64,000 nt of DNA, taken from Rhizophagus irregularis. Lineage: Eukaryota. Made by a program: the position numbers and the translations under genes. Below, piece after piece: positions 14,758 through 41,270 of this stretch (position 1 is its first letter; each line of letters starts with the position of its first letter). The stretch spans positions 4,030,001-4,094,000 of the forward strand of contig NC_089429.1 of assembly GCF_026210795.1 (NCBI RefSeq), written 5' to 3'. The notes below the pieces were generated by a model that did no database searches, was not told the DNA's origin, and saw only the letters and a list, made by a program, of their open reading frames with translations.

Positions 14758-15903
14758 ACCGATAAAGAATCAACGATCTTGTTTCCGCTCCTAGAAGGGA
14801 TCGTTAATTCTTTGGTTATATTATCTAATTCTTTAACGGCGGACAAATTTTTTCTGTTCTACGAAACCTTAAAGGTTTCTCTTACGAAATCAACCAAGAT
14901 ATCGAACCCTCCATTTCTTGTTAATTCTGAAATATTAACAGCTACAAGCTGTCAGCTTAAAATCTTTTGAACAAATTCTTCATCAACGTAATCTATAAGT
15001 TCCTTTTGAGATAAACTTCCGGTAGATGCTCTATAATTAAATTAATAATTAATACAAACAGCACTATTTGGTTAGCTAGGAAACAATTAAATAAATACCT
15101 GTTTTTTCTTATTTCTTTAAATTCTTCTACAGAAGTTAAAATAATTTGGTTAAACTTATTTCTGAAGTCGATGAAAAATTTTCAGGTTTTTTTGAGGTAG
15201 CTTTTAGCTTCGTTCGAATGTATTTTTATTTTGAAAATTTTTGTTATCAACTCATCAAAAACTTTACCACGTGGACTTCTCGCACCTAAAAAAAGACACT
15301 TGACACTTTCGTCCCATAGACGAATTTTATCCTAAAATATTAAAAATACATTATTTAAAAGATTTAGACAAATAAATATTATCATGTTAATTTAATACTT
15401 ACGTCCATAATTTTACTGGATGATGAGATAGCAACATCTGTATTGTTTATTTCTAGTGCCAATCTTAAAATTTCTGGATGGTCGACGAACCAAGCAACTA
15501 TTTCTAAATTTGACTTTGATTGAAATACTTTGGGTTTTTTATGATCTTCCGTCTTACTCGCATCATCATCATCATCATCATCATCATTACTTCTTTTTTC
15601 ATTTACTACTATAACTTCTTTATCGGCAGATTCGGCAGCTTCTTTATTACTATGGTTTTTACTTTTTTTCATCAACTGATTGGCTTTCTCAATGTCAATA
15701 TCTCTTCTTTTTTTCATAATTTGTTTTCTTTTCGATCCTATTATACATATTTTTGGTATTTATTAATTATTCTTCTTACATATAACTATATAACAAAACT
15801 TACTATAAATTTACAAAAGAGTTATATCTACATACCTCCTTCAACTTCCATTTCTTAATTATCATCAGACGATTTATTAGGTGATTTACGTTTAGTCGTC
15901 ATA
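14758..15903 (-). pseudogene. Intron-containing transposon accessory gene, disrupted
   Basis: ATG at 15903 (MTTKRKSP); exon containing ...LEIVAWFVDHPEILRLAL...; GT-AG introns; in-frame stops. Confidence 0.55.
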
Positions 15904-17173
15904 ATATAAAAAAAAATATGAGCAAAAAAAAAAGTGGAACAACCTTTTTGTTTCAAAGTAGGTGATATATATCGAGGAAATATGAATGAATAAAAAATGT
16001 GGAGCAACTTTCTTGCTCAAAAAAGTAGGTGATAAACATTGAATGAACAAAAAAAAGGGCGAGGTTATCATGATATAATTTTGAGATTTTAGCTATTGTA
16101 ATTATGATTGTAGTATTTAATTGGAAAATATACATGATCTCAATATCATTGTGTATTGTGTAAAATGCAGGATCAGTTAAAAATATCAGGAGATGGGAAA
16201 ACTAAAAATTATGATTTCAAGATCGAAAATTAAATTTAATTTATATAAATAATTTGTATTTCATTTAATAATAAAAGTGAATACTGGACACTTTTTTTAT
16301 ATAGAAGATTACTTCAAATCAGTTCCAAATCTTTATTTTATTGCGTATTTACGATTCAATTTCATAAATTTTATTATACTTTTTTAGGCCATATAAGGAG
16401 TGAGAAGAAAAATATTAGAAGAAAGAAGTGAGAAGAAATTAATCATGTGAAGTATCATTTTATGTGATACAATAATATGCACCAAACTCAAAAAGTATAA
16501 CCATTATAGCTACTATTATCATTCGGCATTAAATTACGTAATGTTAAAGATATTATTGCATCCAAATAACCCAATCAAACCTTTTTACTCATATGTGACT
16601 GATTACTAAATTTGCGAAAAGACAATGCAACTCCTTAACATATGATTTTTGTATATTATTGTACAATTATGAAAAGAAAGTCGTGAGCAGTCTATAGAAT
16701 ATTATGTAAAGCTACAAAATTCAAAAATATTTAGAGTTGGTAACGAATTTACATTTCAATAGTACCATTAAATAGAAATTTATAAACTTAACTGCTAAAG
16801 GAAGAGAAATTTTTAAACGATAAATGGATGAAACATAGTACAGTTTGATGGTTGCTAGAATACTCTCAAAATAATTTTCATGATTAATTGTGGAGGTTAT
16901 AATTAAAATATTCCAATTGAAATAATACAGTGACGATCTGCTTATTTGCTTATTTAATGATTTAGCATATTTTATTATTTTATGTAGTAAAGTAAATAGT
17001 ATTTTTTTCTAAATAATGAAAGATACATCGTTCAGAAAATAAAAAAATTGAATGTTGTACAGCAATATAATATTAAGCAAAAAATTGAATGTTGTACAGC
17101 AATATAATATTAAGCAAAATTAAATGTTGTACAGACATCAATATAACAAAATAGTAATTATGATTTGAAAGAT

Positions 17174-17908
17174 TTACAATTTCATATGAAGTGAGGTGAG
17201 TGTAAACGGAGAGGCGAAATTATTCAATTTCAATGATTTCATAATATGAAGGTGAGCCTCGTAAACGGTAAGGTATAGGTGATGAGTGATGGAGGAGAGG
17301 TGTAGGTGATGAGTGATGGAGAGGCGTAGGTGATAATGATGAGTGTGAACGGAGAGGTGATATAGGTGAGCATATTGGTGAATGTAGTGGTGAAGATGAC
17401 GAAGTTGTTGTATGGCTTGTTGTGTTGATTTCGTGAGCAATATCATAAATTATTTCTAAATAAATAATCAGATTAATTTATGAATTAAATAAAAAAAAAA
17501 TAAAATATTTACGTGGTTTTCTAATATTTAAGTCATTTTTCCCAAAAACGTTCACTGCCGGAATTCCTCGTAGTACTTCGTTCCTAGAGCACTTTTCCTT
17601 CCCTTTGGCTTATTCTCGATATATAATTGCATTTTCTAATAAAATTATAAAATTATATTAGTACTATTTAATATGCTAAAATAGTAGTTGAACCTGAAAT
17701 AATGTTTATATACTTTATAAGCTCGCACTAAGCCGTTAAATTTTTTTTTACATTTCCTCCCAGTATACGTGGTTCTGAATTCAAGGTTTATTTTGCTTGC
17801 TAGCCCTTTCCAAAAATTATGCTTCATATTACCATTAAGTTCGTGAAAATTATTGTTTTGATTTTTTCTTTTATTAATTAAAACTCGCAATTGTCTATCA
17901 GTCCACAT
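17174..17908 (-). pseudogene. Myb/SANT-like (trihelix) DNA-binding protein with Ser/Pro/His-rich tail
   Basis: MWTDRQLRVLI...FWKGLASKIN...TGRKCKKKFNGLVRAYK trihelix pattern, followed by GT-AG introns and disrupted exons. Confidence 0.75.
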
Positions 17909-17984
17909 GTTATTAAAGAATTAATAAAATATTAATGAAAACGAAAGAGAAAGAATTTTGTAAAAGGAGTGGGAAAATAAAAAA

Positions 17985-18075
17985 AATCTGTAAAAAAAAA
18001 AAATCCGTGTAAAAAAAAAAAATCCGTGTAAAAAAAAAAAATCCGTGTAAAAAAAAAAAAATCTGTGTAAAAAAA
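17985..18075 (+). repeat. Short tandem (A)n-TCCGTGT repeats
   Basis: aaaaaaaaaatccgtgt repeated about 4 times. Confidence 0.8.
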
Positions 18076-21000
18076 AATAAAATCAAATTATTACGCCTAC
18101 AATCTATGAACACAAGAATTAATGAAATATTAATGAAGATGAAAGAATTAATAAAACGAAGAATTATATTAATGAAAACGAAAGAATTAATGAAACAAAA
18201 GAATTTTGTAAAAAGAGTGGGAAAATAAAAAAAATCTGTGTAAAAAAAAAATCCTTGTAAAAAAATAAAATCAAATTATTATGCCTACAATCTATGAACA
18301 CAATAAGAAATTGCAATGATGTAGAATAAATAGTTTAAACAAATTTGTTAAACAAATTTGGATAAGCCATGGGTATGCCGCGGATATGTCGCGGGTGTGT
18401 CACGGGTGTGTCGCAGTGTCTTTATGGTAAATTAAAGCATTTACCGTGGGTGAGTTGCGGGTCAATTTGAGGACTTACTATGGAATAATAAAGATGTTTT
18501 TATACACGTAATTATCTTCTATGGTGGTTGATTTAGAGGTTCAATCAGAGAAGTTTTACCACAACATTTATTTTATTTTGACAATGACTTAAAATTAATG
18601 AAAATTAATTAACGAAAATTAATTTAATTGGTCTGCTAATAACAATCATGGTGTTTAACGAATTCGCTTCATTAGTTTTGATGTTCGAAAAATATAATCG
18701 TAAATTAAATATATAATCGTAAATTAATAAATCATACTTTATCTATTATTTTATTAAATCGTAAACTTTAATACTCTACTACTAAATTAACTAAATTATT
18801 GTTTCGCAAGAGCATTTTCTATTTATTAAGTATAATTTTCAACCACTATTTTTTATAATCCTGCATATGAATTTACAGGTCAAAAACTTCGCAATTCAAT
18901 TAGTTTAATTTTCGAGTTTTTTGACGCATTCGTGAGATTTAAGCAAGTATGAAATAAATTTTTTTTATACTAATTGAATTTTTATGTATTGATTAACGAT
19001 AAAAAAAGCATGTACTACTTGATTTTGTATACGATTGTGTTCCAAAACTTGACGATTGTGTTACTTTTAAAACTCCAATGTGCTACTTGATTTTGTATAC
19101 GATTGTGTTCCAAAACTTGATGATTGTGTTACTTTCAAAACTCCAATCAGAATCTATAGCAAATCGGTAATAATTTTAACTGAATTGATTTTGGTTTTTT
19201 TGTCGATACGCTAAACAATATAAAAGGTATTAAGGTATTTAATAAATAATTTTTATAAAGATTTATTGAATTTTATAAAAATTCTAAATTAAGTTAAGGA
19301 TTTAAATTGTCAAAGGATGAGAAGACGATATAGTCACAATAAACCAATAGAGCCAATTTGAATTCGAAATCGGTTTTCTTACAGCAAACCTAATGAGACA
19401 ACAGATTCTGACGAGAGAGTTGCAATTCGTTCGCCTGTACGTTCACCTGATAATGATAACGATGATATGGACTTTCAGTATGATCATAAAGATGATTTAA
19501 GTTTTCAAGACATTAATGATGACGATAATGCATATGGATCAATTAATCCTCAAGACTACAATGATGAGATGATATTTTCGCAAGATAATGTCAATTCATC
19601 TGATACTGAAGAGGAAGAAGAAAGTGATAACGAATACAATTATGAAGAGGAGGAAGAGGAAGAAGATAATAATGAAAACAATGACGAAGAGGAGGAAGAG
19701 GAAGGTAATAATGATGATAATAATAATCAAGTGGAAGAGGAACGTAATAACGATGAAGAGGAACGTAATAATGAAGAAGAAGAAATAGATCAAATTGTTG
19801 AAGCGTTAGATGAAGACAAGATACCGTTCTGCAATAGTGAGTTTGCACTATACTTTAATAATTATACAACTACGGCATTATTTTGCTGGCTTCAGAAGCA
19901 TAATGTTTCTACAAAAGCATATGAAGATCTTGTCGATATCATTCACAATTCTCAATTTGAACCTACCCATATGGTAAAAATATCCGAAGATTCCAATCAT
20001 GGAGAAAACGTCTTCCTCTCCTACCAATAATAACAAAGTCTATTAAAATTTCACTAAAAAAAACTCCATCAACCTCACGAGGATCAAAACTTTCGTATCA
20101 ACTCTCAATCAGTGAAATTATATGGCGTGTTCTTAATAATCCGATGCTAATGAAGCATATGTATTTTGGACCCGGCATTAATTCTGAAGAAAAATCAGAA
20201 TTTTGGCATGGAAATTTATGGGGGGAATCCCCACTTTTTGGACAATACGAAATATTAATATCAGAAGGTTATAAAATAATACACTTTGATACAATTATAA
20301 TTTATTATCATTGATAATATTTATTAAAGTTATTTTTAATAAATAGTATTGTACCGATCTGGTGATTTTGTTTACTATCATGATGATAATGGTCAAAAAA
20401 AACTTGGAAGATTAAGATCAATTTTAAAAAATGATGATGGATATTATTAGTTATGAATTCAAAAAATTTTGGAATATAGAGATTTACCCAGAAATTTAAA
20501 AGGGTTACCAAGACAACGTCGTTCTATTACCGGTGAAGTATGGTTACAAGACGAACCATTTTTAATTATAATGACTTCTCAAATTTTAGAAAAAGTAACT
20601 ATATTGATGATGTTTCAACATCAAAATATTCCTGATGGTTCATTACGGATTAGTGAAATAATTTATAAATGTAATGACCGTTGGCACGTTCGTAATGTAA
20701 AGCTTTCATACCTACATCCATCTGATTACATTTCTATCAGAAATCCACCATCATCATCTATGCCAATCTATAAGCTGTTTTTAGATCTTTATTATGATGA
20801 TTTTGGTATATTTAGAAATGTATACCATTCTCTAGGTGGTGTTTATGTACAGTTTGGAAATATGCCAGCACATCAAAGAAAGCTAATAAAGAATCATTTT
20901 GTTATTGGGTTTATCCCATTTGGAGGAAAATTTGACGAATTTATGATACCATTTATTTCAGAAATGAAGGAATTAGAGAAAGGAAAGGTGATGACTGTCC

Positions 21001-24000
21001 AAGGACAAGATGCATGGATAATTGCTGGTTTAGGCGTTGTTACGGCAGATTTACCTCAAGGTAACGATTTGACAGGAGTATTAAGGTATTTTTTCAATTT
21101 AATTAATAATATAATAATATAATTTTATGACAACTATTAAAATTGTTTAAAAAATAAATTTAGACATAATGCAAATAAGGGTTGTCGTACTTGTAAAACT
21201 ACTAAAGAATCATTGAGTGCTCACAATCAGGATATCGTAACAATATTACGTTATCATCATATTACAGACGAAGAAATCTTAAAAATTTCTCATAAGACTA
21301 TAATGTCAAGAAGAGATCAACTTTGTACGGAATATGGTTTACGATCATTACCTAGTATTTTAGATAAATTAAAAAGGGAAAGACATTTACAGACGCCGCA
21401 GGATGTTTATCATGCGACTGCAGGAAAGATTGGGCGACTACTAAAATTAACTTGTGAATTATTTTCACGAGAAGGAGAAGATAATTTTATCGAAATTTGG
21501 AAAAATTTTGAAATCCCAAAAAGATGGTCTCACTTACCAAATCCGATTACTCACTACAATAGTTTTATGATGTCGGATTTACTTAGATTAGCTATGATTA
21601 TGCCATTTTTGTTAAACCAGTTTTTAAAAGAATCAAGTATCAAACGTAATGAAACAGCCATGATTCAACAAAGAATTGATGCATTTCGAGTTAGTTCAGT
21701 TCTAAAAATTATTATATCTTGTTGGATACATGTTGCAAAAACTATGAAAGCGGTTTTTAACAAGAAATTTACATCAGATAGCTATGAGGAATTGCAACAA
21801 TGTCTTGAAGAAGAGTTTTCAATCCTTCCAAAGGTATAGTTACAAATTTGATATTGAAATATGGAATAATTTCAAATAATTAACAATATTTTACTTTTTA
21901 TAGGTTTTTATAAATTTTGTTAATTTACCAAATATACACGTTAATATGCATCTTTTGATGCATGCTAAAACCTTTGGAACACTTATTAATACCCAAGTTG
22001 GTATAAAAGAAATGGTCCATCGTATTCAAAAACATAGATTTAGATTTATTAAAGCGTTACAATACTTTATTTGCAATTCGACATTTAGCAGATGGTGGTA
22101 TTGATCCAAGATTTAATAGATCTCGTACTCACTGGTCGAAATCAAAAAAATCGGATATATGGAAAATCGGCCAAAAATCAGACCAAAATTGGCTAACATT
22201 ATAAATCGGCACATCTGATTGATGCCAATCAGACAATTCGATAAAAATTCAGCAAAAAATCATCATATTTGATTAACGGCTGATTGATGCTAGTTGAAAT
22301 CAAAAAAAAAAATGGACAAATGGCAAATCAACCTAAAATTTGTCCGATATTCAAATATGATACTTCAGATTTATGAAAAATTGACAATTCAATAAAAATT
22401 CAATAAAAATTCAACAAAAATTTGGCAAAAAATCATTATATTTGATTGATGGCTGATTGATGCTGGTTGAAATCAAAAAAAAAATTGGACAAAATGGCAA
22501 ATCAACCTAAAATTTACCCAATATTCAAATATGATACTTCAGATTTATGAAAAATTGACAATTCAATAAAAATTCAATAAAAATTCAACAAAAATTCGGC
22601 AAAAAAATCATCATATTTGATTGACGGCTGATTGATGCTGGTTGAAATCAAAAAAAAAATCGGACAAAATGGCAAATCAACCTAAAATTTACCTAATATT
22701 CAAATATGATACTTCAGGAAAATTGACAATTCAATAAAAATTTGATAAAAATTTGATAAAAATTCGGCAAAAAAATCATCATATTTGATTGACGGCTGAT
22801 TGATGCTGGTTGAAATCAAAAAAAAAATTGGACAAAATGGCAAATCAACCTAAAATTTACCCAATATTCAAATATGATACTTCAGATTTATGAAAAATTG
22901 ACAATTCAATAAAAATTCAATAAAAATTCAACAAAAATTCGGCAAAAAAATCATCATATTTGATTGACGGCTGATTGATGCTGGTTGAAATCAAAAAAAA
23001 AATTGGACAAAATGGCAAATCAACCTAAAATTTACCTAATATTCAAATATGATACTTCAGGAAAATTGACAATTCAATAAAAATTTGATAAAAATTTGAT
23101 AAAAATTCGGCAAAAAAATCATCATATTTGATTGATGGCTGATTGATGCTGGTTGAAATCAAAAAAAAAATCGGACAAAATGGCAAATCAACCTAAAATT
23201 TACCCAATATTCAAATATGATACTTCAGATTTATGAAAAATTGACAATTCAATAAAAATTCAATAAAAATTTGATAAAAATTCGGCAAAAAAATCATCAT
23301 ATTTGATTGACGGCTGATTGATGTTAGTTAAAAATCAAAAAAAATCAGACAAATGGCAAATCAGCCTAAAATTTGCCCAATATTGGTTAAAATTACAAAT
23401 TGGCACTTCTGATTTGTGGCATACTGGTTAATGATTTATGGTTGAATCTTTTCATATTATTGATATATGTAATTTATGATAAATAATAAATATTCAGTTA
23501 TCCTCATTAAAAATTGCATGAACGGTCCCTAATATTATTGTTGGATGATTTAAACTATATAATAGTTTAAATCATAATCTGTCACCTGATTTATTCAATA
23601 GTTAGAAATTTGCTCATTTTTCAATTGGGTATCAATCAAAATTAAACTATTATAATATTTACTATTTGTTGATCAATTATAATAAGATGCGACGCGTATT
23701 GTATTAAAAGTATAATTAGTATAATTTTAGCTTTAAGATTAATTTAAGATTACAACCTTTTAACCTTTTTTTTCCTCAAAACAAAATATTTCTCTTTTAT
23801 TGCTCTATGGTTCAAATTGGGAATTGATAAAAGAATCTCAATTTTTTCCGATTTAATAAATATCAGTATGCCAGTATTGAAGAAAAAAAATTTTTTTTAT
23901 TCCAGCATTCCGATTTACTGTAATGAAATGAAATAATAAAAATATATTTTTTTTTATTATTTTTAATATTATTTGCAGGTTCCGGCATTCCGATTTAATA

Positions 24001-24764
24001 AAAATATTCTTTATTTGTATATGATATCGGGTATGCTGGTATCAAAAAAAATATCTTTTTTTATCATTTGCAGGTTCCAATGTTCCGATTTAACGATTAT
24101 TTGTAGATGGATATCGGTATGCCGGTATTAATAATTTTTTTTGTATTTCTGGCATTCCAATTTAATGATCAAATCAGCTAAATCAAATGGTGGAGGTTTG
24201 GAAAAAATTATTCAAAATGAAAAAGGAAATTGCTGTAATTGCAAGTATGAACAAGCAATTTGAACAATCGGCAAAATACCAGAACGTTTTTTCTGCAAAA
24301 TATTATAATAAATGCAAAAAAAAGCCTAATTTTTTAACGGTAGATCGATATGCGGTGTTTCCAAAAACGGCTCTTTTTTTGTTGATCAGATGGATCATCG
24401 GATATCCATCTTTTTTTTTATAAAAAAATTTTTTTTTTTTAACCTTCCGGACACCATTTTACATTCTGATCCTCATGCGGATGGCGGAAAAATTCATTTA
24501 GGGCAACCTCAGAACTAATGGAACGGCACTTAGAAGGTATTTAGAGAGGAGAAGGGATTGTTTTTTTTAAATTGGAGCGTTAATATACATTTATTAATGT
24601 TCCACTTTCTTTTTTTTATTGTAGACCCTCAAGACCCTTTTCACTTTTAGGAACCTTGAAAGGAAGGTAATGCCCCGAAGAATTTTTTTATTTTTATTTA
24701 ATGCGGAACGTTAGGTATAAACTAACATTGTTTTCTTTTTTTTTTATTAGGTCCAGGACGCTGC

Positions 24765-25039
24765 CACTGGTAAAAAAATGATTTATTCTACACATATCTT
24801 ACACATATTGGGTACTTAAAATGTAGAAAATCATACACAAATAATACACATATCATACACATATCGGTACTAATATATATATCATACATATATCAGGTAC
24901 CTGATAGGTATACTATATATATAAGTACCCGATATGTGTATGATATGTGTATTATTTGTGTATGATTTTCTACATTTTGAGTACCCGATATATGTAAGAT
25001 ATGTGTAGGATATGTGTAGGATAGACCATTTTTTTTACC
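24765..25039 (-). mobile_element. CACTG MITE, reverse copy of 62868-63146, right TIR clipped
   Basis: cactggtaaaaaaatg...cattttttttacc with probable TGC duplication; internal tacacatatc repeats. Confidence 0.8.
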
Positions 25040-25429
25040 TGCGCTGGACTCCATTTTGAAGGTATAAACCTTCGATCGAAAAAATAAAGACGAAAAAAAA
25101 ATTTGGGAGAGGGATAAAGAGAAAAATCGGGTTGAAAAAAGAAACCGAAAAGGAAAAAGAAAAAAAGGATAAAAAAAAAGCCAGCGCAATGGAGTTTTTG
25201 GTCCAGCACCCAATAACGATCACCCAAATTTTCCCAAATTAATGGAACCGCCAAAGAAAAAAATTTTCTATTTTGATAAAGACAATTTAATAATCAAGGA
25301 GTATCAAGGTGCGAAACTTCTATTAATTCTGTTAGAAGTGTTAAAATTTCTGTTATATTTGACATGATGTAAGAAAGAAGGAGATTCCAATTCTTTAACT
25401 TTCTTTAAATTTAGGGAAAAAAAAAATTT

Positions 25430-27380
25430 ATTTCAGCGAAACGTTACTAACGTTTTGATTTTCTTTTTTTTTAGATTTTGGCACTCCAGTTTCCGTATTT
25501 CTGGATGGAATTTCGAAGGTACCTCTTCGAAATTCTGCATTTATTTTTTCTTTTTTATTTGAACGAAACGTTACTAACGTTTCGATTTTCTTTTTTTTTA
25601 GGTTTTGGCTCTTCGGTTTCCATATGACTGGATGGAATTTCGAAGGTACCTCTTCGAAATTCCGCATTTTTTTTTCTTTTTTTATTTGAACGAAACGTTA
25701 CTAACGTTTTAATTTTCTTTTTTTTAGGTTTTGGCTCTTCGGTTTCCGTATGACTGGATGGAATTTCGAAGGTACCTCTTCGAAATTCCGCATTTTTTTT
25801 TCTTTTTTTATTTGAACGAAATGTTACTAACGTTTCGATTTTCTTTTTTTTAGGTTTTCAGCTCTTCGGTTTCCGTATGACTGGACGGAATTTCGAGGTA
25901 CCTCTTCGAAATTCCACATTTTTTTTTCTTTTTTTATTTGAACGAAACGTTACTAACGTTTCGATTTTCTTTTTTTTTAGGTTTTCAGCTTTTCGGTTTC
26001 CGTATGACTGGATGGAATTTCGAAGGTACCTTTTCGAAATTTCGCATTTTTTTTTCTTTTTTTATTTGAACGAAACGTTGACTAACGTTTCATTATTTTA
26101 TTTTTTTTTAGGTTTTGCTCTCCGGTTTCCATATGTCTGGACGGAATTTCGAGATACCTCTTCGAAATTCCGCATTTTCTTTTTTTATTTGAACGAAACG
26201 TTACTAACGTTTCGATTTTCTTTTTTTTAGGTTTTCGGCTCTTCGGTTTCCGTATGTCTGGATGGAATTTCAAAGGTACCTCTTCGAAATTTCGATTTTT
26301 TATTCTTTTTTTATTTGAACGAAACGTTGACTAACGTTTCGGTTTTTTTTTTTTTAGATTTTTGGCTTCCCAGGCGGCATTTCGAAGGTGAAACTTCGAA
26401 AAAAAAATTTTTTTTTTATTTTATTTTAACAAACGTTAACTAACGTTCGTTCTTAATTTTGTAGGTCCAGAACACCAAAGTGCGGGGCTCCGATTTGGCC
26501 AAATCTACAGGTAAAGTTTCGTATTTTCGAAACTTAATAAAAAAACGTTAATTTTATCGTTTTTTATATTTTTTTATAGGAAATTGGCTCTGAATTGGCC
26601 AATCCTATAGGTAAAGTTTTGAAGTTTCTTCCTTCGAAACTTTCATAAAAAACAGTTATTTTTAACGTTTTTTATATTTTTTATAGGAAATCGGCTCTGA
26701 TTTGGCCAATCCTATAGGTAAAGTTTCGTATTTTCGAAACTTAATAAAAAAACGTTTATTTTAACGTTATTTAATTATTTTTTATTTTTTTTTTGTAGGG
26801 AAATCGGCTTCAATTTGGATACCGGAATCCCGCAAGTAAAGTTTCGATTTTTGAAACTTTTTGACGAAACTTAATAAAAACATTAACGTTTTTTTATTAT
26901 ATTTCATTGATTTTTTTTTGCAGGGAAATCGGCTCCAATTTGGATACCGGAATCCCGCAAGTAAAGTTTCGATTTTTGAAACTTTTTGACGAAACTTAAT
27001 AAAAACATTAACGTTTTTTTATTATATTTCATTGATTTTTTTTTGCAGGGAAATCGGCTCCAATTTGGATACCGGAATCCCGCAAGTAAAGTTTCGATTT
27101 TTGAAACTTTTTGATGAAACTTAATAAAAACATTAATTATATTTCATTGATTTTTTTTGCAGGGAAACCGGCTCCAATTTGGATACCAAAATCCCGCAAG
27201 TAAAGTTTCTATTTTTGAAACTTTTTGACGAAACTTAATAAAAAACGTTTAATTTAACGTTTTTTTATTATTTTTATTATTTTTTTTGTAGGGAAATCGG
27301 CTCCAATTTGCCATCCTACAGGTAACGTTTTGATTTTCTGGGAATTAAGGAATTTAACATATACCGGAATCCCAGGTTAG
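25430..27380 (+). repeat. Tandem arrays of micro-exon/mini-intron units (~125-bp period)
   Basis: Repeated ...gaag|gtacct...gaaacgttactaacgtttc...ttttag|g units, then ...cgcaa|gtaaag...tttgcag|g units. Confidence 0.8.
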
Positions 27381-28619
27381 TTTCGAAATAAAAAATTCAA
27401 AACTTTTATAAAAAAGTATTTTATTATTTACGCAATTAAACATTATTAACGTTATTCTGGGGTCTTTTAAACGCATGGAAATTCAGTAAGGTGATTTTAA
27501 ACAGCTACTTCACCTTTCAAGTTTTCAGGCAACTGGAATATTGATTTTTGGGCGAAATTGTTTTATATGTATATGTAATATTTTAAATTTCAGAATAAAA
27601 TTTACTGTAATTTGCGATACAATTCAGAATAAAATTTACTGCAATTCAGATGCAATTCAGAATAAAATTAACTGCAATTCAGACGCAATTCAGAATAAAA
27701 TTTACCACAATTCAGATTAAAATTTACTGTAATTCAGATTAAAATTTACCGCAATTCAGAATAGAAAATTTACTGCAATTCAGAATAGAAAATTTACTGT
27801 AATTCAGATTAAAATTTACCGCAATTCAGAATAAAATTTACCGCAATTCAGAATAAATTTACCGCAGTTCAGAATAGAAAATTTACCACAATTCAGAATA
27901 GAAAATTTACTGTAATTCAGATTAAAATTTACCGCAATTCAGATTAAAATTTACTGCAATTCAGATTAAAATTTATCACAATTTATCAAAATTTATCATA
28001 ATTCAGAATAAATTCACTTGCAATTTGGTAAATTTATGAATATATTTTTTAAACAATTCAAATTAAAAATACTAAGCAATCCAGATACAATTCGGATATT
28101 CTGATCGGCGTCGATCGGCCTGCCAATCGGAACTTTTTTTGGATTGATAATTCGGCCATCTTTATCACCAAATTCAGCCTAAAATCGGACATCCGATTTC
28201 TAGTTGATTTGGACTATTTCGACCAGTGACTGGATTTACAAATTCAAATTTTGGACAATTATTTTTAAATTGGTATGTTACAGAAGATAAATATTCAACT
28301 GAAGCAACTGAACAAGTTCAAGACGATGATGATGATACAACAAGTAAGTATTTTATTGCATATAGTAGTACATGTTTGATATTTATATTTACTAATCTTT
28401 TAATTTAGTTATATCTCCAGTAAACTTTATTTCCAATATTTCATTAAAAAAAAGAATGTCAAAGCAGGAACGTGATAAACTTCTTTTAACTTTACATAAT
28501 TTTAAAACTGAATTGTTTTTATCTTATGTGAATATGAAGTTTGAGGCGGCACTTATAAACTCTTCAATTAATTGGTACAAATTTGCATCATATATGATTG
28601 AAGAAGAAAATGGTATCTT

Positions 28620-28863
28620 TAAGGTTGCTTGTCTAAACCTCTTCAAAATCCTACGATTAGTTTCGTCAAAATTTTACTATAGATTTATTATAGTTTCGGC
28701 AGAGTTTCAGCAGTTTCGGCATTTATAATAAGTTTCAGCAGTTTCGCCTTTCTCCAAAGTTTCGCCAGTTTTTTAATATAACTTTAATATAGTTTCAGCA
28801 GAATTTCGCTTTTCGGCGAAACGCCATCTTGCATAAACCCCTAGGTTTTGGCAAGCAACCTTA
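28620..28863 (+). mobile_element. hAT-type MITE (TAAGGTTGCTTG family), copy 2, inside a transposase exon
   Basis: Same sequence as 9648-9890; TSD ggtatctt/ggtatcct. Confidence 0.9.
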
Positions 28864-30519
28864 GGTATCCTTTCAAAAGTTCACCTACATCTTGATGATT
28901 TTATCACAATTTATGAAGAAGATCATGAAGAATCTTATGCAATAATCAAAGGTATCTTTCAATATAAGGGTAATAATAACAAATATTATGCATTTATTGT
29001 TGTAGATTGGTTTGAAGATACTATGGTTGAACATTCAGTATTAAAATGTCCACTTTACCATCTTCAAGCAACAGGAGATAAATGGAGACGTATTTTTCCA
29101 ATTACTGTAATAGATAATGTTCAAAAAGTACACTTTATTCATAATTGTAATTCAGAAAGGTGCCAACTACCAAATCATGATACTACAAATAGAATTTGGA
29201 TAAAAAATAATTTTTATTTTACAGCCATATAATTATATTAATTATATAAATATAATAAAATAATTATTTTAATTTGTATCGTATAAAATTTTGGTTAAAA
29301 TTAACCAATAAAATCATATGCATGATGTAATAATAATTTAAAATTAACCAATTAAAATCACTTTAATTACATGCATGTGATATCTAAAAATAGCTAAAAT
29401 TCGCGTTTATTAATGAGATTTTTTTGTTTATTTTCAAAAATACGCTTTTCTCTTGTCTCTTATATTCGATATTTTAGTTCGTCTCTTCTTTTCTCTTTTT
29501 AAAGTATACTTTAATTATCTCTTTACAATATTAACAATACTTTATTAGTTTATATATTCAACATAGTAAGACATTCACATACGAAAAGCAAGAATAAAAG
29601 CAAGAATAAAGAAAAGAAAATGTACCCGCCACTCATATACGAAAGAAAAGAATAAAAGAAAGGAAAAATGTACCCACTACCCACATACAAAAGAGAGAAA
29701 AGCCGCTTTTAAATAAATAGTGGAGCTGTTAAGCAAGGTATGAAAATAGGATATACGCGTATTTTTCATATTTTTTTTACAATATGTTGTGGTTTGAGTC
29801 TTTCTTTGTTAGACTGTGGTATAAATGTGAATATATTTTTCAACAGCCATGTATCTATTGCTTGTTAAATATATTTGCAATTTTTTGTCTTTCTTTGTTA
29901 AACTGTGGTATTACAATATGAAGTGTGAATATATTTTTCAACGGCCATGTATCTATTGCTTGTTAAATATATTTGCAATTTCTTTTGTAATATTTGCTTT
30001 AGCCTGGAGGAAAATGTTATAAAATAGGGCTGGATATTTTATGACATTTTCTGCCTTCCAATTACTTTGTCCGGAGATAGCCTGACAATTTGTCGTTGTC
30101 CGTCAGTCGTAGCAACCAGCATTTTTTTACAATATTATGATTTTAAGAAACAAAACACTTTCAAAAAAATTTAAAGAAAGAACTAACTTAAAAATATTAT
30201 CATTTTTATTATTCTTTACAAAATCCCAGAATTACCTGCTCTAACTATTATCCCAAGGTTATGTATTAAATTTTAAATATATTTTACAAAGAGTACATTT
30301 TATTAATCATGATTGTTTTATATATATATATATATATATATTTTTTAAAATTGAAAATGATGTATCCATCCACTTACATACGAAAGAAAAGAATAAAAAA
30401 GAGAAGAAAAGAATAAAAAAAAAGGAAGAAAAGAAACGTACTCCACTCACCCATAATAATCCACTAATAAAAAATTATTATTATTAATGTATAATAAATA
30501 AATGTAAAACATTTTTTGT

Positions 30520-31000
30520 AATATTAATTCGATATTAATATGATATTATTATGATGTAATTAATAAAATGTCAAATATTTTGTAATATTAATTCAATGTT
30601 AATACGACATCACTACGATGTGATTACGATATCAAATAAAATGTCAAATATTTTGTAATATTAATTCAATATTAATACGACATCACTACGATGTGGTTAC
30701 GATATCAAATAGATGTAAAATATTTTTGCAATATTAATTCGATGTTAATATGATATCACTACGATGTGATTATGATATCAAATAAAATGTCAAATATTTT
30801 GTAATATTAATTCAATATTAATATGACATCACTACGATGTGGTTACGATATCAAATAGATAAAATATTTTTGAATATTAATTCGATGTTAATATGATATC
30901 AATACGATGTGATTACGATATCAAATAAAATGTCAAATATTTTGTAATATTAATTCAATGTTAATATGACATCACTACGATGTGATTACGTGATAATATT
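30520..31000. repeat. Subterminal tandem repeats (~60/120-bp period)
   Basis: Repeated gtaatattaattcaat...gacatcactacgatgtg...gatatcaaat. Confidence 0.85.
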
Positions 31001-31370: not shown

Positions 31371-31790
31371 AATTATAAAGTGATATTTTTACGATATCAT
31401 ATTGATATTGAATTAATGTTGGAACGATATCATATTAATATCGTATTTACTTTCTATTTTTCATTATTGTTATAACAATATCAAAATATCGAAATGATAT
31501 CGATTTGATGTTTCGTCAATATCGTTATGATGTCGATTAGATAATTATAAAGTGATATTTTTACGATATCATATTGATATTGAATTAATGTTGGAACGAT
31601 ATCATATTAATATCGTATTTACTTTCTATTTTTCATTATTGTTATAACAATATCGAAATATCGAAATGATATCGATTTGATGTTTCGTCAATATCGTTAT
31701 GATGTCGATTAAATAATTATAAAGTGATATCTTTACGATATCATATTGATATTGAATTAATGTTGGAACGATATCATATTAATATCATAT
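31371..31790. repeat. Continuation of the GATATC array interrupted at 7338
   Basis: Same unit and orientation as 6880-7338 (units here carry a short extra duplication). Confidence 0.85.
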
Positions 31791-32316
31791 TTACATTCAT
31801 AGGACCTGTGAGTAATGCTAGAAATATAGCCACTAATTCTGAACGTGTAGATGAAGGCCATAGTGATACATTTGCTTGGGCTGACAAAGCAGGTTCATTA
31901 TTAACACAAAACGCCGCACCCATGTCTGTGTACACTAAATTAAGATCTTGTTTACCCATTGTTGTAGGGGTGCTTGGCTTGAGAGAACCATCTGTATAAT
32001 ATTCTACCATTGTTCTCTCTGCTAGTATATTTCTAATATTCATTAGTTGCGTTTTCAAGTTATCATCATCTATCCATCTGTGAATCCATATGTCTTGGAC
32101 CATCGGTAGGCTAATTATGGGATTTGGAGCTGATGTTGATAACCTGTCATCAGGTATCGAGACATTAAATTGATGGGTTGATGACAGCCATTCACTAGGA
32201 AAACTCCAGCCGCACATATTAGATTCTTTATTTAATATTGCCACTTTACAGCAGTGAGCTGGTATGGATCGTCCCATGTCCTGCCAACCAAATGTTCTAT
32301 TATCATTATATCCCGG

Positions 32317-33427: not shown

Positions 33428-34938
33428 CGCAAGAAAGGAAATGATCATCATCACATGATTATTATTATAATGAATATGAAAATTTAATTTCGTTAGTAAG
33501 TCACTGATAGGTATTATTAATCAATATTTTATTTTTAGAATTTATTTTTAGATTTCAGGTTTTTGACGAGTTCAAAAGGAACCAATAAGTCAACAAGGAT
33601 TTAATCGAGTTAAAAACTTGGAAAGGTGAAAGATTGGAGTTTGTTGTTGTGCAAGTAATCATTTAATCGATAGAAAGCACAAGAATATTTCTTTCGGGAA
33701 TAAAGTACCTGAGAAATTTCATAAGGAGATGTGGAAGCGAAAGATGAATTTTGAAATAAAGATTAATAATGGGAGAACACCAATGTATTATCTGGGATTC
33801 ATCTGTGTGGTATGGGTTACCTCTGAGTTTGAATTTTGGATAAATGCTCGAGATTGGAAAATTTTTATTCTTCGACATTAAAGATTATAACGTATGGGTT
33901 ACGTCAAATCTGGATACCCAGCTCAATAATGCGCAAATTGCTTTGGGGACGGGGAACGAAAATTGTAAAGACACCTACTATCAAGAAACATTGAATGGAT
34001 AAAATGGGACAAACCTGTAAACTATCATGCTTTTACCCAATGGGAAAAAGATAGAGATAAGCCCAGTATAGGTCCACCAATTTGAGGAAAGATAAGTTGG
34101 TTTAGATGAGTTTTATGGATAGCTGATGACTTTTGAAACTGGATTTTGGAAGGTTAGATTCACCCGTTAAGAGACGAGTCGGCCAACGAAGGAGGAAAGA
34201 CAGATGCGTTGTATTGTTACAGGTCCTAGGCTACATTTCAGATGAGGGTTCCTGGTGTAGTGTGCTAGGTCACGCTTTCATTACAATGTTCTGTTAAAAG
34301 AAGATAAAGTAGAAGGATATTTACACATTAACGAGCTGTATAATGAATATTATGTGCAGTATTTAATAATAGAGTAAAATCCGAAAAGAAGGACATTTAT
34401 TAAAAAGAAGAACATTTATTTGAAAAAGAATATTTATTTGAAAAAGAACATTTATTTGAAAAGAAGGACATTTATCTGAAAAGAACGACATTTTGTGCGT
34501 TATAGATTAATTTATATAATATAGAATATATAGAGCAAGAAGGATTTATGTGGATGATAAGAAAGATGTGATATGTGATATGTGAAATTATGAATCACGG
34601 TGATAGGAGATAAATTTTAGAATGTGAAATTATGGATATCGGTGATAAAAGATAAATTTTATGGCGCAGTAAAAACCTCCGCAGTCTGAGGAGATCGTGG
34701 ACTTAGAATAATTTTTGAAATTTTGAGGCGCAGTAAAATTAATAGTAAAACATGGCGTAGTAAATATATAAAATTGAAAGATGGAGTTTAAAGATTGAAA
34801 GAAGTAATCTATTTAAAGATAAAAGAATGTTTAGAAGATCAAAAATAGAAATGATAAGAGTGAAATATATATATATAAAGAGAGGAATCCGATTGAGATT
34901 CTGGATGGATATTCATAGCAATTTAACTAAAGCATACA

Positions 34939-37900
34939 ATGGAATGGTACCATCAATGGGAAAGTGAATATAGAACACATAAGGAGGAACACGAACTAGG
35001 AACAGAAGAATTGGACGAATGTTTAAATTGTGAATTGTGTCATCCGATAGTAAATGAACCAATAGTGTTCAAGAAATTTTGGGACGCATTATTTAAATTT
35101 GAAGATGCAATAATAATATATAATGATGTAACAATTAAAGGATTATTAGATTTATTAAGTATGGATAATTCAGAAAGAGAAGATACAATACATAAGGGGA
35201 AATGTAGAGACATAATGGATAGAATAACAGAATCAATAAGATATAGGATACAGCCGAAAATAAAAGAGAAGGGATTACGAACAATCATATTAGTGATTGT
35301 GAGGGATTGTATTGAAAGAAATCTGGGAAATGAAGTATTTGATAGATTGATTGGAAATCCTGAATTGATAGAACACAAATATATTTTAGAAGATTGGGAT
35401 GTTGAAAGAAAGTTTGGGAAATTTTGGCAATGGTACAGAATCACATCGAAAGAAATTGGACCATTACGAGTAAAGATGGGAGCAATGAAGACATTTAGGG
35501 AATTACTATATGAAGAAGAAGGAATAGCTACGAACGAGGAGAAAGTAAAGGAATTAATGTCCAATATGGAATACGAGAACATAAATATAGAAAATGTTCA
35601 CGAATATCACAGGAATATGGTACAAAAGATAATAAGAATATTTATAGATACTAGGGGCTTTACAAAAGAACCAGAAGATTCAGAAAGTGAAGATAGTCCA
35701 GCAAGTTATGAATTAGAAAATAGTTCTGAGGAAGAATTAGAGATAATAATAGGGGACAAATCATGGAAATTTAGTGAATTAAAAAGAAGGACAAGCTCTA
35801 TAGACGAAGATCAATTGAGATACATTTGGAAGATAGGAATAAAGTTGATGATAGAAATGGATATATTGGTAACGAAAACATTTATAGATAAAGTTCAGGA
35901 GATAGAGGAAATCGACGAAAGGGAAAAAGAATTGAAGATAAGAGAATGGTTAGAAAAAGAAACAGTAATATGTAAAAGATGCGGTAATAGAAGGTTCGAA
36001 ATGGACAAAACAGATAATGAATGTGGGGAATGTATTAAAGAAATGCAGAAAGATGAACAAGATGAGTTAGCAGAATTAAAAGATGAGATAGAAAAGTTAG
36101 GATATGAAATAGATGTATCAGAAATTCAAAGAATGAAGAGTTTTGGGGTAAATAATCGAATATTAATAACAGAAGAATTTATAATGGAATATATGGGAAT
36201 AATAGAATTGGAAGATAAAGAATTAAGAAGAGAAATTCATAAGTGGTTAAATGAGAATACAACTTGGTGCGAAAGGTGCGAAATAAGATGGATGAATAAT
36301 ATGTTTAGATTTGGAGGAACTGTATGCAAAGATTGTGAAGAAGAAGATGTTGATGAAATTGATGATCGGGTAAAAAGATTGCAGAAGATTTTTGAAGATA
36401 TCGAAACAATAGTAACTGAAGAAGAATTGTTAAGATTAACCAGTATGGGATATACAAATGGAGAAATTTTAGATAAAGAATTCATTGAGATCTTTCAAGA
36501 AAACAAGAATGAGTCAGAAAAAGAATTGAAGAAAAAGTTAGATAAGTTATTGAAAGAACAAGCAGGAATAATAGATAGTGAAGAAAGTGGTGAAAAGAGT
36601 GATAATGAAGAATCAGAAGAAGATAATACAGATGATTCAGAAAAAACTGGAGAAATATTAAGTCCAGATGAAATATGGAATGAAAATATCGAAAATTTTA
36701 ATGAAGAAGAGTTCGAAGATGAAATTGAAAATGTTATAAATAGAGGAGGTATTGACTTAAGTCAAAACTCAGATACGAATAGTTCATTAAATATTAAGAA
36801 TTCGGACAACGAAAGTGAATTATCTGATTACAATTTACAAGATTTATTTCAAGAAAATATGGCAACCGAGAATCAAGTAAAGAGATTAATAGAGAACGCT
36901 TTAGGTTATCCAGCTAATACTTTGAATGCAGCAGTAGGAGCAGGAGCGAGTTTGATAGATAGAATTGAAAATGCAGGGAATGAAGCAGGAGGAATGGTTA
37001 GTGTACCACTCTTTTATGGAAAAGAAGACGAAAATGTTAACGATTGGGTTAGACAATTTGAGGTAGCATTTACAGCAGTCGGAAAAGCAGCAGGAGCTAA
37101 TGGTGTAAGACAAGCGGCATACGCAGCAGCACATTTAAGAGGGGCAGCATCACAATGGTATAATGAAATGAAAGAAGTAAATGCAGGTAACTTAGTGAAT
37201 TGGGCGGATGCAGATAATGATAATGATTTAAAGCATAGAATAAAAAGAAGATTTACTAGAGAGGATGTCAGAAGAAAGAAAATGCAAGAATTAAGAAAAA
37301 TTCGACAAGGAAAAAATGAAAATGTTGAGGAATACACAGGAAGATTTAGACAAATATTAAGGATAGCAACTAGAGGACATGCCTTAGCAGATGATTGTCA
37401 AGTAGATTATTATATTGATGGATTGGAACCAGCAATAGGGTTTCAAATTAGAAGACAGAATCCGGAGAACTTAAATGGGGCAATAGAAATGGCAGAAAGA
37501 GAAGAAAGTGCAAGGGACGAATTTTATAGGAAAATAATAGGTTTACCAGTTAGTACAAAGATAGACATCGGAAGAGATGATAATAGACAAAATATGTTCA
37601 CAAAACCATTGAACGAAAATTATGAGGACGAATTAGTCAAAGCGTTTGAGGAAAAGGCAAGAATTAGTAAATTAGAAGGACTGGTATCAAATATAGAGAG
37701 AAGATTAAATAACGATAATAATAGGTATCGATCAAATATGGGAAGGAGATTAAATGATGGTAATAGGAATAGTTATCAATCAAATCAAAAAAGGGTACCG
37801 ACATGCTATACATGTGGTAGAATTGGTCATTATTCAAGAGAGTGTCTGGGGAAAAGAAGGAATGCAAGAGTAAATATGATGGACGAATACGATGACCAAG

Positions 37901-38580
37901 AAGAATATGGTTATAATGGATATGAAGATGAGGAACCACAATACAGTGAAATGTATTATACACAAGGTTATTACGATGATTATGAAGATAGGGAATTAAA
38001 TTACCACAATGAATTATACGCGAAAGATAACGCAGTAAAAACAAGAAGACAAACGAGAAGGTCGAATCCAGTAGTGGGATATAAAAATAATAATGAAGAA
38101 GGAAATTTACAAGAAGAATTAAGAGAAGCGGGAAATAGAATGGATGATAGAGAAATACCAAGTGGAACAACAACACCAAGATATACGCCCGAAAGGACAG
38201 AACAAAATAATGTATACAAAGATAGTCAAAATTGGGATAATCCAATAGGACCAGAAGATTATAATTATGGTCGTCGACCCATGACAAAAGATGGAAGATT
38301 TTATAAACCAATGTTCACAAAAGAAGGCAAAGCATTTTACCCTGGAATGCGGCAAGACGAATTTGGAAATTGGGTTAGAACAAAGCCATCAGGGACAGGA
38401 AAGTCCAGAGAATATGGACCGAGATTAACTGATGGAATACCACCTTACGACATTGTGGGAGACGTGAAAAATTGTAGAGCGAATATAACATTTGGACAAT
38501 TAACAAATGAGAATACTAAGTATCATAAACAATTAAGGGAAGGAACATATAAGCCAAGAAGTGTAAATGAGAGAAATTGA
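34939..38580 (+). CDS. gag: Gag with ~640-aa N-terminal extension, capsid domain and CCHC zinc knuckle
   Basis: PLFYGKEDENVNDWVRQF...LRGAASQWY...IRQGKNENVEEY; CYTCGRIGHYSREC. Confidence 0.9.
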   Translation: MEWYHQWESEYRTHKEEHELGTEELDECLNCELCHPIVNEPIVFKKFWDALFKFEDAIIIYNDVTIKGLLDLLSMDNSEREDTIHKGKCRDIMDRITESIRYRIQPKIKEKGLRTIILVIVRDCIERNLGNEVFDRLIGNPELIEHKYILEDWDVERKFGKFWQWYRITSKEIGPLRVKMGAMKTFRELLYEEEGIATNEEKVKELMSNMEYENINIENVHEYHRNMVQKIIRIFIDTRGFTKEPEDSESEDSPASYELENSSEEELEIIIGDKSWKFSELKRRTSSIDEDQLRYIWKIGIKLMIEMDILVTKTFIDKVQEIEEIDEREKELKIREWLEKETVICKRCGNRRFEMDKTDNECGECIKEMQKDEQDELAELKDEIEKLGYEIDVSEIQRMKSFGVNNRILITEEFIMEYMGIIELEDKELRREIHKWLNENTTWCERCEIRWMNNMFRFGGTVCKDCEEEDVDEIDDRVKRLQKIFEDIETIVTEEELLRLTSMGYTNGEILDKEFIEIFQENKNESEKELKKKLDKLLKEQAGIIDSEESGEKSDNEESEEDNTDDSEKTGEILSPDEIWNENIENFNEEEFEDEIENVINRGGIDLSQNSDTNSSLNIKNSDNESELSDYNLQDLFQENMATENQVKRLIENALGYPANTLNAAVGAGASLIDRIENAGNEAGGMVSVPLFYGKEDENVNDWVRQFEVAFTAVGKAAGANGVRQAAYAAAHLRGAASQWYNEMKEVNAGNLVNWADADNDNDLKHRIKRRFTREDVRRKKMQELRKIRQGKNENVEEYTGRFRQILRIATRGHALADDCQVDYYIDGLEPAIGFQIRRQNPENLNGAIEMAEREESARDEFYRKIIGLPVSTKIDIGRDDNRQNMFTKPLNENYEDELVKAFEEKARISKLEGLVSNIERRLNNDNNRYRSNMGRRLNDGNRNSYQSNQKRVPTCYTCGRIGHYSRECLGKRRNARVNMMDEYDDQEEYGYNGYEDEEPQYSEMYYTQGYYDDYEDRELNYHNELYAKDNAVKTRRQTRRSNPVVGYKNNNEEGNLQEELREAGNRMDDREIPSGTTTPRYTPERTEQNNVYKDSQNWDNPIGPEDYNYGRRPMTKDGRFYKPMFTKEGKAFYPGMRQDEFGNWVRTKPSGTGKSREYGPRLTDGIPPYDIVGDVKNCRANITFGQLTNENTKYHKQLREGTYKPRSVNERN

Positions 38581-38589
38581 CTACACTCG

Positions 38590-39093
38590 GTGGAAACTAT
38601 GAAAAACGAAGAAAAGAGAACTACAGCAATGAGAACAGAATTAGAAGTTGAAGATCAATTAGTGAATGTAATAATAGATACTGGAGCAGCAGTAAGCGTG
38701 ATAACAGATAAATTAAGAAGAAGATTGAATATACCTATATTTGGAAAAAGTAAATTTAGATGTACAATAGCAAATGGGCAAAAGATAGCAGCGTTAGGAA
38801 AGGCGAATATAACTTTGAGGTACAAAGATGAATTAGAAATACTGAAAGAAGTTGAAGTAATCGATTCAGAAGAAGAGGATCTAATTTTGGGAAATGACAT
38901 ATGGAAGTTGTATAATGCAAAAATAAATTTTGAAGATCATACCTTAAGAATAGAAGAACAGGGAGAAATAATAACGATTCCAGTAGGATATGAAAGAGAA
39001 GTAGCATATGAAAGTGAGGAGAGTGAGGACGATGAAGAATATGAAAGCAATGATGAAGGAGAGGTATTCAAAATGCACCAGAATTTTAAATAG
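38590..39093 (+). CDS. Retropepsin aspartic protease
   Basis: VIIDTGAAVSVI and LILGND motifs; same frame as gag after TGA-CTA. Confidence 0.93.
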   Translation: METMKNEEKRTTAMRTELEVEDQLVNVIIDTGAAVSVITDKLRRRLNIPIFGKSKFRCTIANGQKIAALGKANITLRYKDELEILKEVEVIDSEEEDLILGNDIWKLYNAKINFEDHTLRIEEQGEIITIPVGYEREVAYESEESEDDEEYESNDEGEVFKMHQNFK

Positions 39094-39128
39094 AGAGTCT
39101 TGGCTCTGAAGAGAGAGAGACGGAAAAG

Positions 39129-41210: not shown

Positions 41211-41270
41211 AAATACAGAACACATAACGAAAATAACAAATTTAGAAGCGAAATCAATTAAAGAGGTATT

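Follow-up and report, generated by a model that had tools for sequence, protein, structure and literature searches.

A tandem array of micro-exon-like blocks and intron-like spacers lies at positions 25427-27380 of a 64,000-nucleotide (nt) stretch of Rhizophagus irregularis DNA (contig NC_089429.1; the whole stretch is called the window, and all positions refer to it). The array, here locus 1, is on the plus strand within a putative 6.1-kb non-autonomous DNA transposon of the CACTA type, and its units carry spliceosomal signals placed in short palindromes. Two further loci of the same design, loci 2 and 3, are present in the window, and introns of this design are removed from polyadenylated (poly-A) RNA at a diverged homologue of locus 2. 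The features needed to follow the argument are these:

9081-11505, plus strand: locus 2, micro-exons and structured mini-introns of the array design in a non-repetitive chain, 6 profile matches
22130-28228: the 6.1-kb putative non-autonomous CACTA-type element, with 13-bp terminal inverted repeats (TIRs) and a 3-bp target-site duplication (TSD)
22235-23384: subterminal tandem repeats of 175 bp, 6.7 copies (Tandem Repeats Finder)
24765-25035: nested palindromic CACTGG small element of ~272 bp, with 84-nt arms and a truncated right tip
25427-26464, plus strand: sub-array A of locus 1, 8 units, each a 30-45-nt exon-like block and an ~83-nt intron-like spacer
26465-27380, plus strand: sub-arrays B and C of locus 1, 8-9 units, exon-like blocks of 30-46 nt
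27589-28012: subterminal tandem repeats of 22-33 bp near the right end of the element (Tandem Repeats Finder)
51640-53360, minus strand: locus 3, ~12 arrayed units whose stems differ, 9 profile matches

Tandem Repeats Finder divides the array into repeats at 25427-26367 (period 127 bp, 7.4 copies, 90% matches), 26486-26783 (period 107 bp, 2.9 copies) and 26761-27310 (period 125 bp, 4.5 copies). The array consists of 16 successive exon-like blocks, all on the plus strand, separated by intron-like spacers of ~70-95 nt. A poly-T-AG acceptor is located 30-46 nt upstream of 16 of the 17 donor-like sites inspected. The first eight blocks are 44, 44, 44, 44, 45, 43, 45 and 30 nt long if the homologous acceptor is taken; the acceptor picker took a nearer TTTTCAG in two of them, which gives 36 and 37 nt. 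Each spacer contains two palindromes, one at the donor and the other around ACTAAC. The donors of sub-array A retain the GT in seven of eight units (GTACCT in six, GTGAAA in one), and the remaining unit has the mutant ATACCT. Its donor palindrome, GGAATTTCGAAG-GTACC-TCTTCGAAATTCC, is predicted to fold into a 13-bp stem in which the G of the GT is paired (G.U) and the loop is UACC. ACTAAC is enclosed in the palindrome CGAAACGTT-ACT-AACGTTTCG in all eight units of sub-array A, 20-25 nt ahead of the AG that, together with a run of T, ends all eight introns. Sub-arrays B and C have GTAAAG or GTAACG donors and (T/C)AG acceptors in 8/8 units; a AAGTTTCG...CGAAACTT palindrome follows the donors, and the introns contain an AACGTT-containing palindrome and end in poly-T-(T/C)AG. 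A sequence profile of sub-array A yields eight matches at 54.9-81.3 bits and does not pick up sub-arrays B and C.

The units appear from their letters to be U2-type GT-AG introns, with GT, AG, branch-point sequence and polypyrimidine tract. The combination ACTAAC-N(8-30)-TTTTTTAG occurs 10 times in the window, compared with 0.07 expected, and none of 100 shuffles attained 10; eight of the ten matches are copies within one array, and hence three independent loci are represented. A tandem array with the full set of spliceosomal signals in each unit is real and far above chance. An earlier reading of the sequence alone (the original prediction) had described about eight units of a 44-nt block with an ~80-nt intron, palindromes at donor and branch point, and a second array with a gtaaag donor. 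The 127-bp array, both palindromes of sub-array A and the second array, which corresponds to sub-arrays B and C, were all recovered, with the block and intron lengths listed above.

The exon-like blocks do not encode protein. The in-silico spliced product of the array, 625 nt long, contains 4, 2 and 2 stops in the three frames, and its longest open stretch is 119 codons, compared with a mean of 73 and a 95th percentile of 111 in shuffled sequences. Exon length modulo 3 is uniform across 293 predicted units (102/96/95); the position-weight-matrix donor picker behind this count mishandles GTACCT donors, which makes its median exon of 33 nt unreliable, and only the uniformity is used. The exons of the expressed locus 2 homologue differ from those of the window copy by insertions or deletions of ~11, 13 and 19 nt, as judged by eye. 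Because the exon lengths are not frame-preserving and stops occur in every frame, the blocks are non-coding and free of reading-frame constraint, as the original prediction had held when it noted no long open reading frame (ORF).

Loci 2 and 3 were found by scanning the window for a branch-point motif inside a hairpin followed by a polypyrimidine (poly-Y) tract and AG. The intron stems of locus 2 include GAACTGTT/AACAGTTC, GAACTA/TAGTTC and GAAATGTT/AACGTTTC. The donor of locus 3 is placed in CCAAGATTC-GTAA-GAATCTTGG and the branch point in GGAACGGTT-TACT-AACCGTTCC. Only the 3' halves of the introns can be aligned between loci 1 and 2 (81-87% over 52-65 nt), and the exons are unalignable. A CT-rich tract, which is a common core-promoter feature in filamentous fungi, lies just upstream of the first micro-exon at loci 2 and 3, whereas the tract upstream of the locus 1 array is purine-rich on the plus strand and thus has the opposite orientation. 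Neither locus 2 nor locus 3 is bounded by matching CACTG ends.

Small elements are found in and beside these two loci. A ~244-bp element with inverted ends (CTAAGGTTGCTTG...) is present in three copies, 95-96% identical, at 9648-9890, 28620-28863 and 48462-48705, and one copy is inserted in an exon-like block of locus 2. A ~380-bp element at ~10937-11320, with inverted ends (GAGTTCCAATCCGTCATC...) and a duplicated ACTAACGT-like string at its flanks, is inserted exactly in a branch-point hairpin of locus 2, and RNA reads skip across it from 10874 to 11348. Just upstream of locus 3, a 40-bp sequence at 53856-53895 (CACTGGTAACAA...TTGTAACAGTG) resembles two back-to-back CACTG ends, with no evident TSD.

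The design is not limited to the window. A search of a metagenome collection with the branch-point palindrome returned 118 stretches, nearly all of ~30% GC, and the array design is present on ~115 AT-rich soil-metagenome contigs. A poly-Y-AG is located at most 60 nt downstream of the motif in 119 of 157 instances, compared with 7 of 157 for the reverse strand. With an iterated nhmmer profile built on the whole unit, 696 units were identified: 671 are on metagenome contigs, and the 25 window units are all at loci 1-3, in a single orientation per locus. A covariance model gave 707 hits at E<=1 in 238 kb, comprising the window and 99 of the 117 metagenome loci. The units are tandemly organised everywhere. 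No published description of such arrays was found in the full-text literature, a scope outside which most subscription journals and supplementary files fall. The array thus belongs to a large and apparently undescribed family of non-coding intron arrays.

Several contigs were considered and set aside. Two of them, L023 and L077, are chance matches to the motif with 57-58% GC. Contig L030, a candidate for a single intron in a coding context, proved to be another micro-exon locus. Contig L008 was a candidate for an intron in a coding gene and was rejected on account of an in-frame TGA and extreme AT richness. Its mitochondrial-type nad11/NDUFS1-like ORF (L008:739-2160) adjoins array units and may be a nuclear mitochondrial DNA segment, a product of chimeric assembly or a sign of a different host.

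The conserved part of the family is the intron. Mismatch rates were calculated between units within the same contig, from 542 units and leaving out instances picked by the search motif. They are 0.16 at GT, 0.20 at ACTAAC, 0.14-0.19 in the branch-point arms and 0.26-0.28 in the donor arms, and reach 0.48-0.52 in the loops and 0.52 in the exon middle. The loops and exon middles evolve 2-3.5 times faster than the splice signals and hairpin arms, in an alignment whose anchoring on conserved columns exaggerates the contrast. Arms that are kept while the loops between them vary form the pattern of a predicted stem-loop. The most conserved columns of the family are ATTTCGAAG-GTA...CTTCGAAAT at the donor, GAAACGTT-TACT-AACGTTTC at the branch point and an exon-start block, GGTCTTCGGCTTC.

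The stems persist where the motif did not select for them. Among 405 unselected introns, the branch-motif stems have a bimodal length distribution that peaks at 2-3 pairs and again at 9, and stems of at least 6 pairs make up 43%, compared with 18% for the same 6-mers elsewhere. The original prediction had proposed a covariance model of the branch-point hairpin, and the model run on the window and the 99 loci revealed compensatory changes. In the structure-fitted alignment of its 150 best matches (103 distinct), 98.1% of cells are paired, compared with 21-56% when the partner is slid; changes on both sides occur in three of eight pairs (23 cells), and covariation is 0.124 compared with 0.043 in shuffles, none of 500 of which attained it. 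In a sequence-only alignment, both-sided changes affect 251 cells of the donor stems and 81 of the branch stems. Between exon start and branch region, 213 of 348 units have a perfect hairpin of 6 bp or more. Of these hairpins, 151 are distinct; the GT falls within the loop or at its edge in 85, and a GTRA is found just upstream in a further 19. The donors are of two types. In one, the 5' arm is supplied by the exon end (TTTCGAAG-(GTAnnn)-CTTCGAAA); in the other, it is supplied by the 5' splice site itself (GGTAAGTTTC-(...)-GAAACTTACC).

RNA evidence came from poly-A RNA sequencing of a related organism, whose reads are ~96% identical to the window and which is therefore another strain or species. 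Positions 24900-27600 were mapped at 93% identity with three poly-A runs and one soil run. This coverage was thin, and 229-344 of 250-370 mapped reads lay only partly on the stretch. The soil run, X1, was flagged as probably DNA; its contigs span exon and intron unbroken and are uninformative on splicing. A second mapping covered 7500-27499 at 90% with four runs. The joints 10400 to 10624, 10692 to 10846, 10874 to 11348 and 11386 to 11505 at locus 2 were present in all four runs. The letters inserted at the joint from 10400 to 10624 consist of a copy of the predicted 25-nt micro-exon, 21/25 identical by eye, followed by the first letters of the next exon. The joint from 10692 to 10846 uses the donor CAG/GT. 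Between the sides of the joint from 11386 to 11505, intron 11387-11464 is gone and a micro-exon 19/21 identical, by eye, remains. The letters between the joint sides begin and end at the predicted acceptor and donor, and therefore introns of the array design are removed from poly-A RNA at the diverged locus 2 homologue. Many reads of run X22 continue through the donor at 10692, which indicates that splicing there is alternative or incomplete.

An ordinary expressed gene at 14600-15800 (minus strand) encodes a lysine- and aspartate-rich protein of no obvious family, which is too little conserved to indicate the host lineage. Its read-supported introns, 14684-14759, 15031-15098 and 15332-15402 on the minus strand, are 68-76 nt long, and their joints are backed by up to 75 letters per side. 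The comparison of the branch-point hairpin with host introns that the original prediction had suggested was made with these: all three are without both palindromes and a long poly-T and are unrelated to the family. This sample of three suggests that structured introns form a special class instead of being the default of the genome.

The element around locus 1 has the TIR CACTGGTCGAAAT at 22130-22142 and its reverse complement at 28216-28228, identical at 13 of 13 positions, and it is flanked by the TSD ACT at 22127-22129 and 28229-28231. It thus shows the CACT(A/G) TIR, the 3-bp TSD and the subterminal arrays that were tested as features of CACTA/EnSpm (CMC) non-autonomous elements, and the non-autonomous transposon with CACTG ends of the original prediction is borne out. 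None of the 12 window ORFs scanned matches a CACTA transposase family, and those tested in or beside the element match no transposase family. Relatives on metagenome contigs exist only for the array part of the element (25.4-26.46 kb); there are almost none for its termini, its subterminal repeats or sub-arrays B and C. The array relatives that lack the other parts of the element are just 65-70% identical, and no parental locus was identified. Because the array has relatives outside the 6.1-kb element, we infer that it was likely captured as cargo. A 6.1-kb element carrying one array as cargo appears to be the simplest reading of these sequences.

Two observations concern the interior of the element. 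The nested CACTGG small element has a second copy at 62868-63146, 99% identical, with the TSD TAT at both flanks. The 233 nt immediately upstream of the array, 25177-25409, have a poly-A read depth of 15-35; these reads have fixed differences and leave for other sequence at both ends, which points to a paralogous copy expressed in another context.

The window has ~28% GC across most of its length. Positions 1-6000 form an island of 41-43% GC with ORFs of 150-422 codons on both strands, compared with 25-32% GC in the remainder, and the one island ORF tested, 796-2064, has no Pfam match. Units of ~60 nt, each arranged about the inverted motif atgccattctggcatttttt, form a long array at 7900-8620. 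Tandem arrays at 30514-30990 and 31371-31798, with periods of 73/146 bp and 172 bp, are in part mutually inverted. A Ty3/gypsy element at 34927-42353 (plus strand) comprises gag, reverse transcriptase, RNase H and integrase in long open frames and has strong GC and AT skew, and a reverse transcriptase and endonuclease resembling those of long interspersed nuclear elements lie at 44055-47812 (minus strand). The protein cluster closest to the gypsy Pol carries the label Mucoromycota (score 0.91), although it may be the cluster of the protein itself; taken with the soil origin of the contigs, it suggests an arbuscular-mycorrhiza-like fungal host. Rfam gave no match across the window at gathering score; its matches in 24.5-28.2 kb are all sub-threshold, and the microRNA-like ones are on the 84-nt-arm palindrome at 24784-25012 and not on the array.

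Based on these observations, a reading of locus 1 can be proposed that we consider probable, although with considerable reserve. The array would be a tandem-amplified module of ~125 bp, made of a micro-exon and a mini-intron and belonging to a large family, which was likely captured as non-coding cargo by the 6.1-kb CACTA-type transposon and is probably silent or rarely transcribed. In a family member transcribed by RNA polymerase II, the ordinary U2-type spliceosome would excise each ~80-nt intron, and the product would be a series of joined 30-50-nt exons that encodes no protein. What is conserved in such a gene would be the intron, together with its two hairpins, and not the exon. Both palindromes of each unit likely form local hairpins that hold the donor and the branch sequence, in RNA or in single-stranded DNA. 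The transposon copy is predicted to be a poor or inactive splicing substrate, because its non-consensus GTACCT donors lie in a 13-bp stem and its CT-rich tract runs the wrong way. According to the available part of PMC4615370, a splice signal sequestered in a stem can control its use, from which a poor substrate at locus 1 would also be expected.

Several results weigh against this reading. None of the 12 joints listed for the mapping of 24900-27600 at 93% was at a predicted GT/AG pair, and no joint at a predicted site of the array was among the 15 listed of the 118 joints of the mapping at 90%; since the RNA is from another strain or species, the absence is weak evidence. The reads differ from the window by fixed changes of ~3-4%, even in the ordinary gene. 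The locus 2 joints carry replaced letters, and an intron-less DNA paralogue is a possible alternative source of them. The predicted folds are equally stable on both strands. The stems have no preference for G.U over A.C, with 46 compared with 60, and the same lack of bias is found for internal isolated mismatches (27 compared with 36) and in the sequence-only alignment (94 compared with 147 in branch stems, 163 compared with 140 in donor stems). This mismatch spectrum looks like that of neutral transitions and unlike the usual outcome of RNA-level selection. The alignment from the covariance model follows the structure by construction, and copies in tandem do not count as independent events. 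Finally, the metagenome contigs were chosen by the branch-point motif and are short (1-4 kb), so that linkage to transposon ends could be missed. Of the spliced transcript in the original prediction, the intron design is upheld by splicing at the locus 2 homologue, and the splicing of the array itself is not.

A bolder extension is possible but doubtful. On this view, an arbuscular-mycorrhiza-like fungal lineage would have a large and so far undescribed class of non-coding RNA genes, the intron arrays. Their introns, with super-consensus signals clamped in two hairpins, on the 5' splice site and on the branch point, would be under selection, and their micro-exons would drift. The loci would exist to be spliced, and transposons would spread them. 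If this is true, the intron arrays could, for example, titrate or time the spliceosome, mark transcripts as self with respect to RNA silencing, or seed new introns.

Alternatively, the array might be the transposon's own active, heavily spliced non-coding gene, whose splicing helps the element to escape silencing or to feed RNA interference, but we regard this as unlikely. The ~17 modules in the same orientation do occupy a third of a TIR- and TSD-bounded element without coding capacity, the intron design is functional elsewhere, and weak GTACCT donors in a strong stem could stall spliceosomes. However, none of the joints listed from the reads is at a predicted site of the array, and the remainder of the element does not accompany arrays. 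Loci 2 and 3 have upstream CT-rich tracts of their own and no matching CACTG ends, whereas the upstream tract of locus 1 is in the opposite orientation. The transposon-encoded function put forward in the original prediction is not supported, since relatives on the contigs are confined to the array part of the element and no matching CACTG ends enclose loci 2 and 3.

A comparably low probability is given to the view that the palindromes are DNA-level features, either protein-binding sites or hairpins or cruciforms whose slippage or template switching would amplify the array, that the splice signals are relics of an ancestral exon-intron junction, still working if the array happens to be transcribed, and that the family is a selfish minisatellite. 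Folds of single units are much more stable than those of shuffled sequences in both senses, with z of -2.6 to -5.4 for the sense strand and -3.8 to -5.2 for the antisense strand (-2.6 and -5.4 for sub-arrays B/C, -5.2 for locus 3 and -0.9 for one unit of locus 2). This equal stability, the strand-symmetric mismatch spectrum without G.U excess and the ubiquitous tandem organisation speak for the DNA-level view. However, the palindromes coincide exactly with both the donor and the branch point in every subfamily, although the stem sequences differ. The arms are conserved around free loops, and GT and ACTAAC equal the arms in conservation. The orientation towards poly-T-AG is strongly strand-specific (119 compared with 7 of 157), and locus 2 lacks tandem identity, yet has kept the intron signals. 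The variable loop lengths argue against sites for dimeric proteins. Heat-shock-element, Myb-site and hammerhead readings of the palindromes were rejected, since the spacing or the core motifs do not fit and Rfam found no ribozyme. The original prediction had named palindromes behaving as strand-symmetric transposase-binding sites as evidence against it; the mismatch spectrum is indeed symmetric, but the palindromes are not at transposon ends and coincide with splice signals. We therefore prefer hairpins tied to splicing over the DNA-level and relic readings, with a confidence that is roughly evenly balanced.

It is improbable that the units are introner-like mobile introns, with the arrays as source loci from which single copies spread into protein-coding genes. 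The abundance of near-identical structured introns, their consensus signals and the compensatory changes in their stems match the fungal introner-like elements described in the available part of PMC3609843. However, the 117 contigs, a small sample biased towards arrays, and the window contain no isolated unit with long ORFs on either side, and the three read-supported introns of the ordinary gene are unrelated to the family. That the array is a protein-coding micro-exon gene for a repeat protein is barely credible: two of three frames are open in most 44-nt blocks, and the 119-codon open stretch slightly exceeds the shuffled 95th percentile of 111, but stops are present in all frames, units of 43, 44 and 45 nt and lengths uniform modulo 3 do not keep a frame, the homologue has indels that are not multiples of 3, and no part of the unit evolves faster than the exon middles.

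Repeated structured spliceosomal introns currently offer the best lead to the origin of new introns. Those known sit in protein-coding genes, whereas here such introns are the building block of whole non-coding transcription units. The conservation is inverted, with the introns and hairpins constrained and the exons free, across hundreds of soil-metagenome units. If the hairpins act in RNA, the family would be a natural and highly replicated system for studying how local structure at the 5' splice site and branch point affects recognition by the spliceosome. If they act in DNA, the palindromes would drive the growth of minisatellites around splice signals. The family is also a sizeable, apparently unannotated share of the repeat fraction in an ecologically important soil lineage, and one array copy shows that DNA transposons can mobilise such arrays.

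The array family resembles several known systems without coinciding with any of them. Zhuo et al. are said to have described, in PNAS in 2007, introns that arose from tandem arrays inside human genes and gave alternative splicing. As in that reported case, the repeat unit bears both donor and acceptor, and a series of introns with small exons results; unlike there, the array makes up the entire transcription unit and belongs to a large family whose signals and hairpins are constrained. In non-coding host genes of small nucleolar RNAs (snoRNAs), the introns are better conserved than the exons and the spliced product has no ORF. The array family shares both properties, but its introns contain no snoRNA or other Rfam family, and their conserved part consists of the splice signals and a 19-20-nt palindrome.

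Fungal introner-like elements, according to the available part of PMC3609843, are repeated spliceosomal introns with stable structure and compensatory mutations that interrupt coding genes. The array units similarly have all splice signals, an unusually stable predicted structure and compensatory stem mutations. Introner-like elements, however, are single introns at new positions in protein-coding genes, as far as that source describes them, whereas the units here form tandem arrays with their own micro-exon and no reading frame, and two short local hairpins lie exactly on the donor and the branch point. The many near-identical structured introns typical of introner-like elements are thus present, and interruption of a protein-coding gene was not seen on the 117 contigs. 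Donor or branch sequences inside short stem-loops are single regulated sites in the cases that the available parts of PMC4615370 and PMC12350175 present; the array family repeats this design on both signals of every intron, with a putative action at the RNA level. Pack-CACTA elements, in the portion of PMC6379663 at hand, are non-autonomous TIR- and TSD-bounded elements carrying chromosomal fragments unrelated to transposition. The 6.1-kb element would be of the same kind, with cargo unrelated to transposition, but instead of a gene fragment it carries a non-coding repeat array, whose putative capture is deduced from the relatives of the array outside the element.

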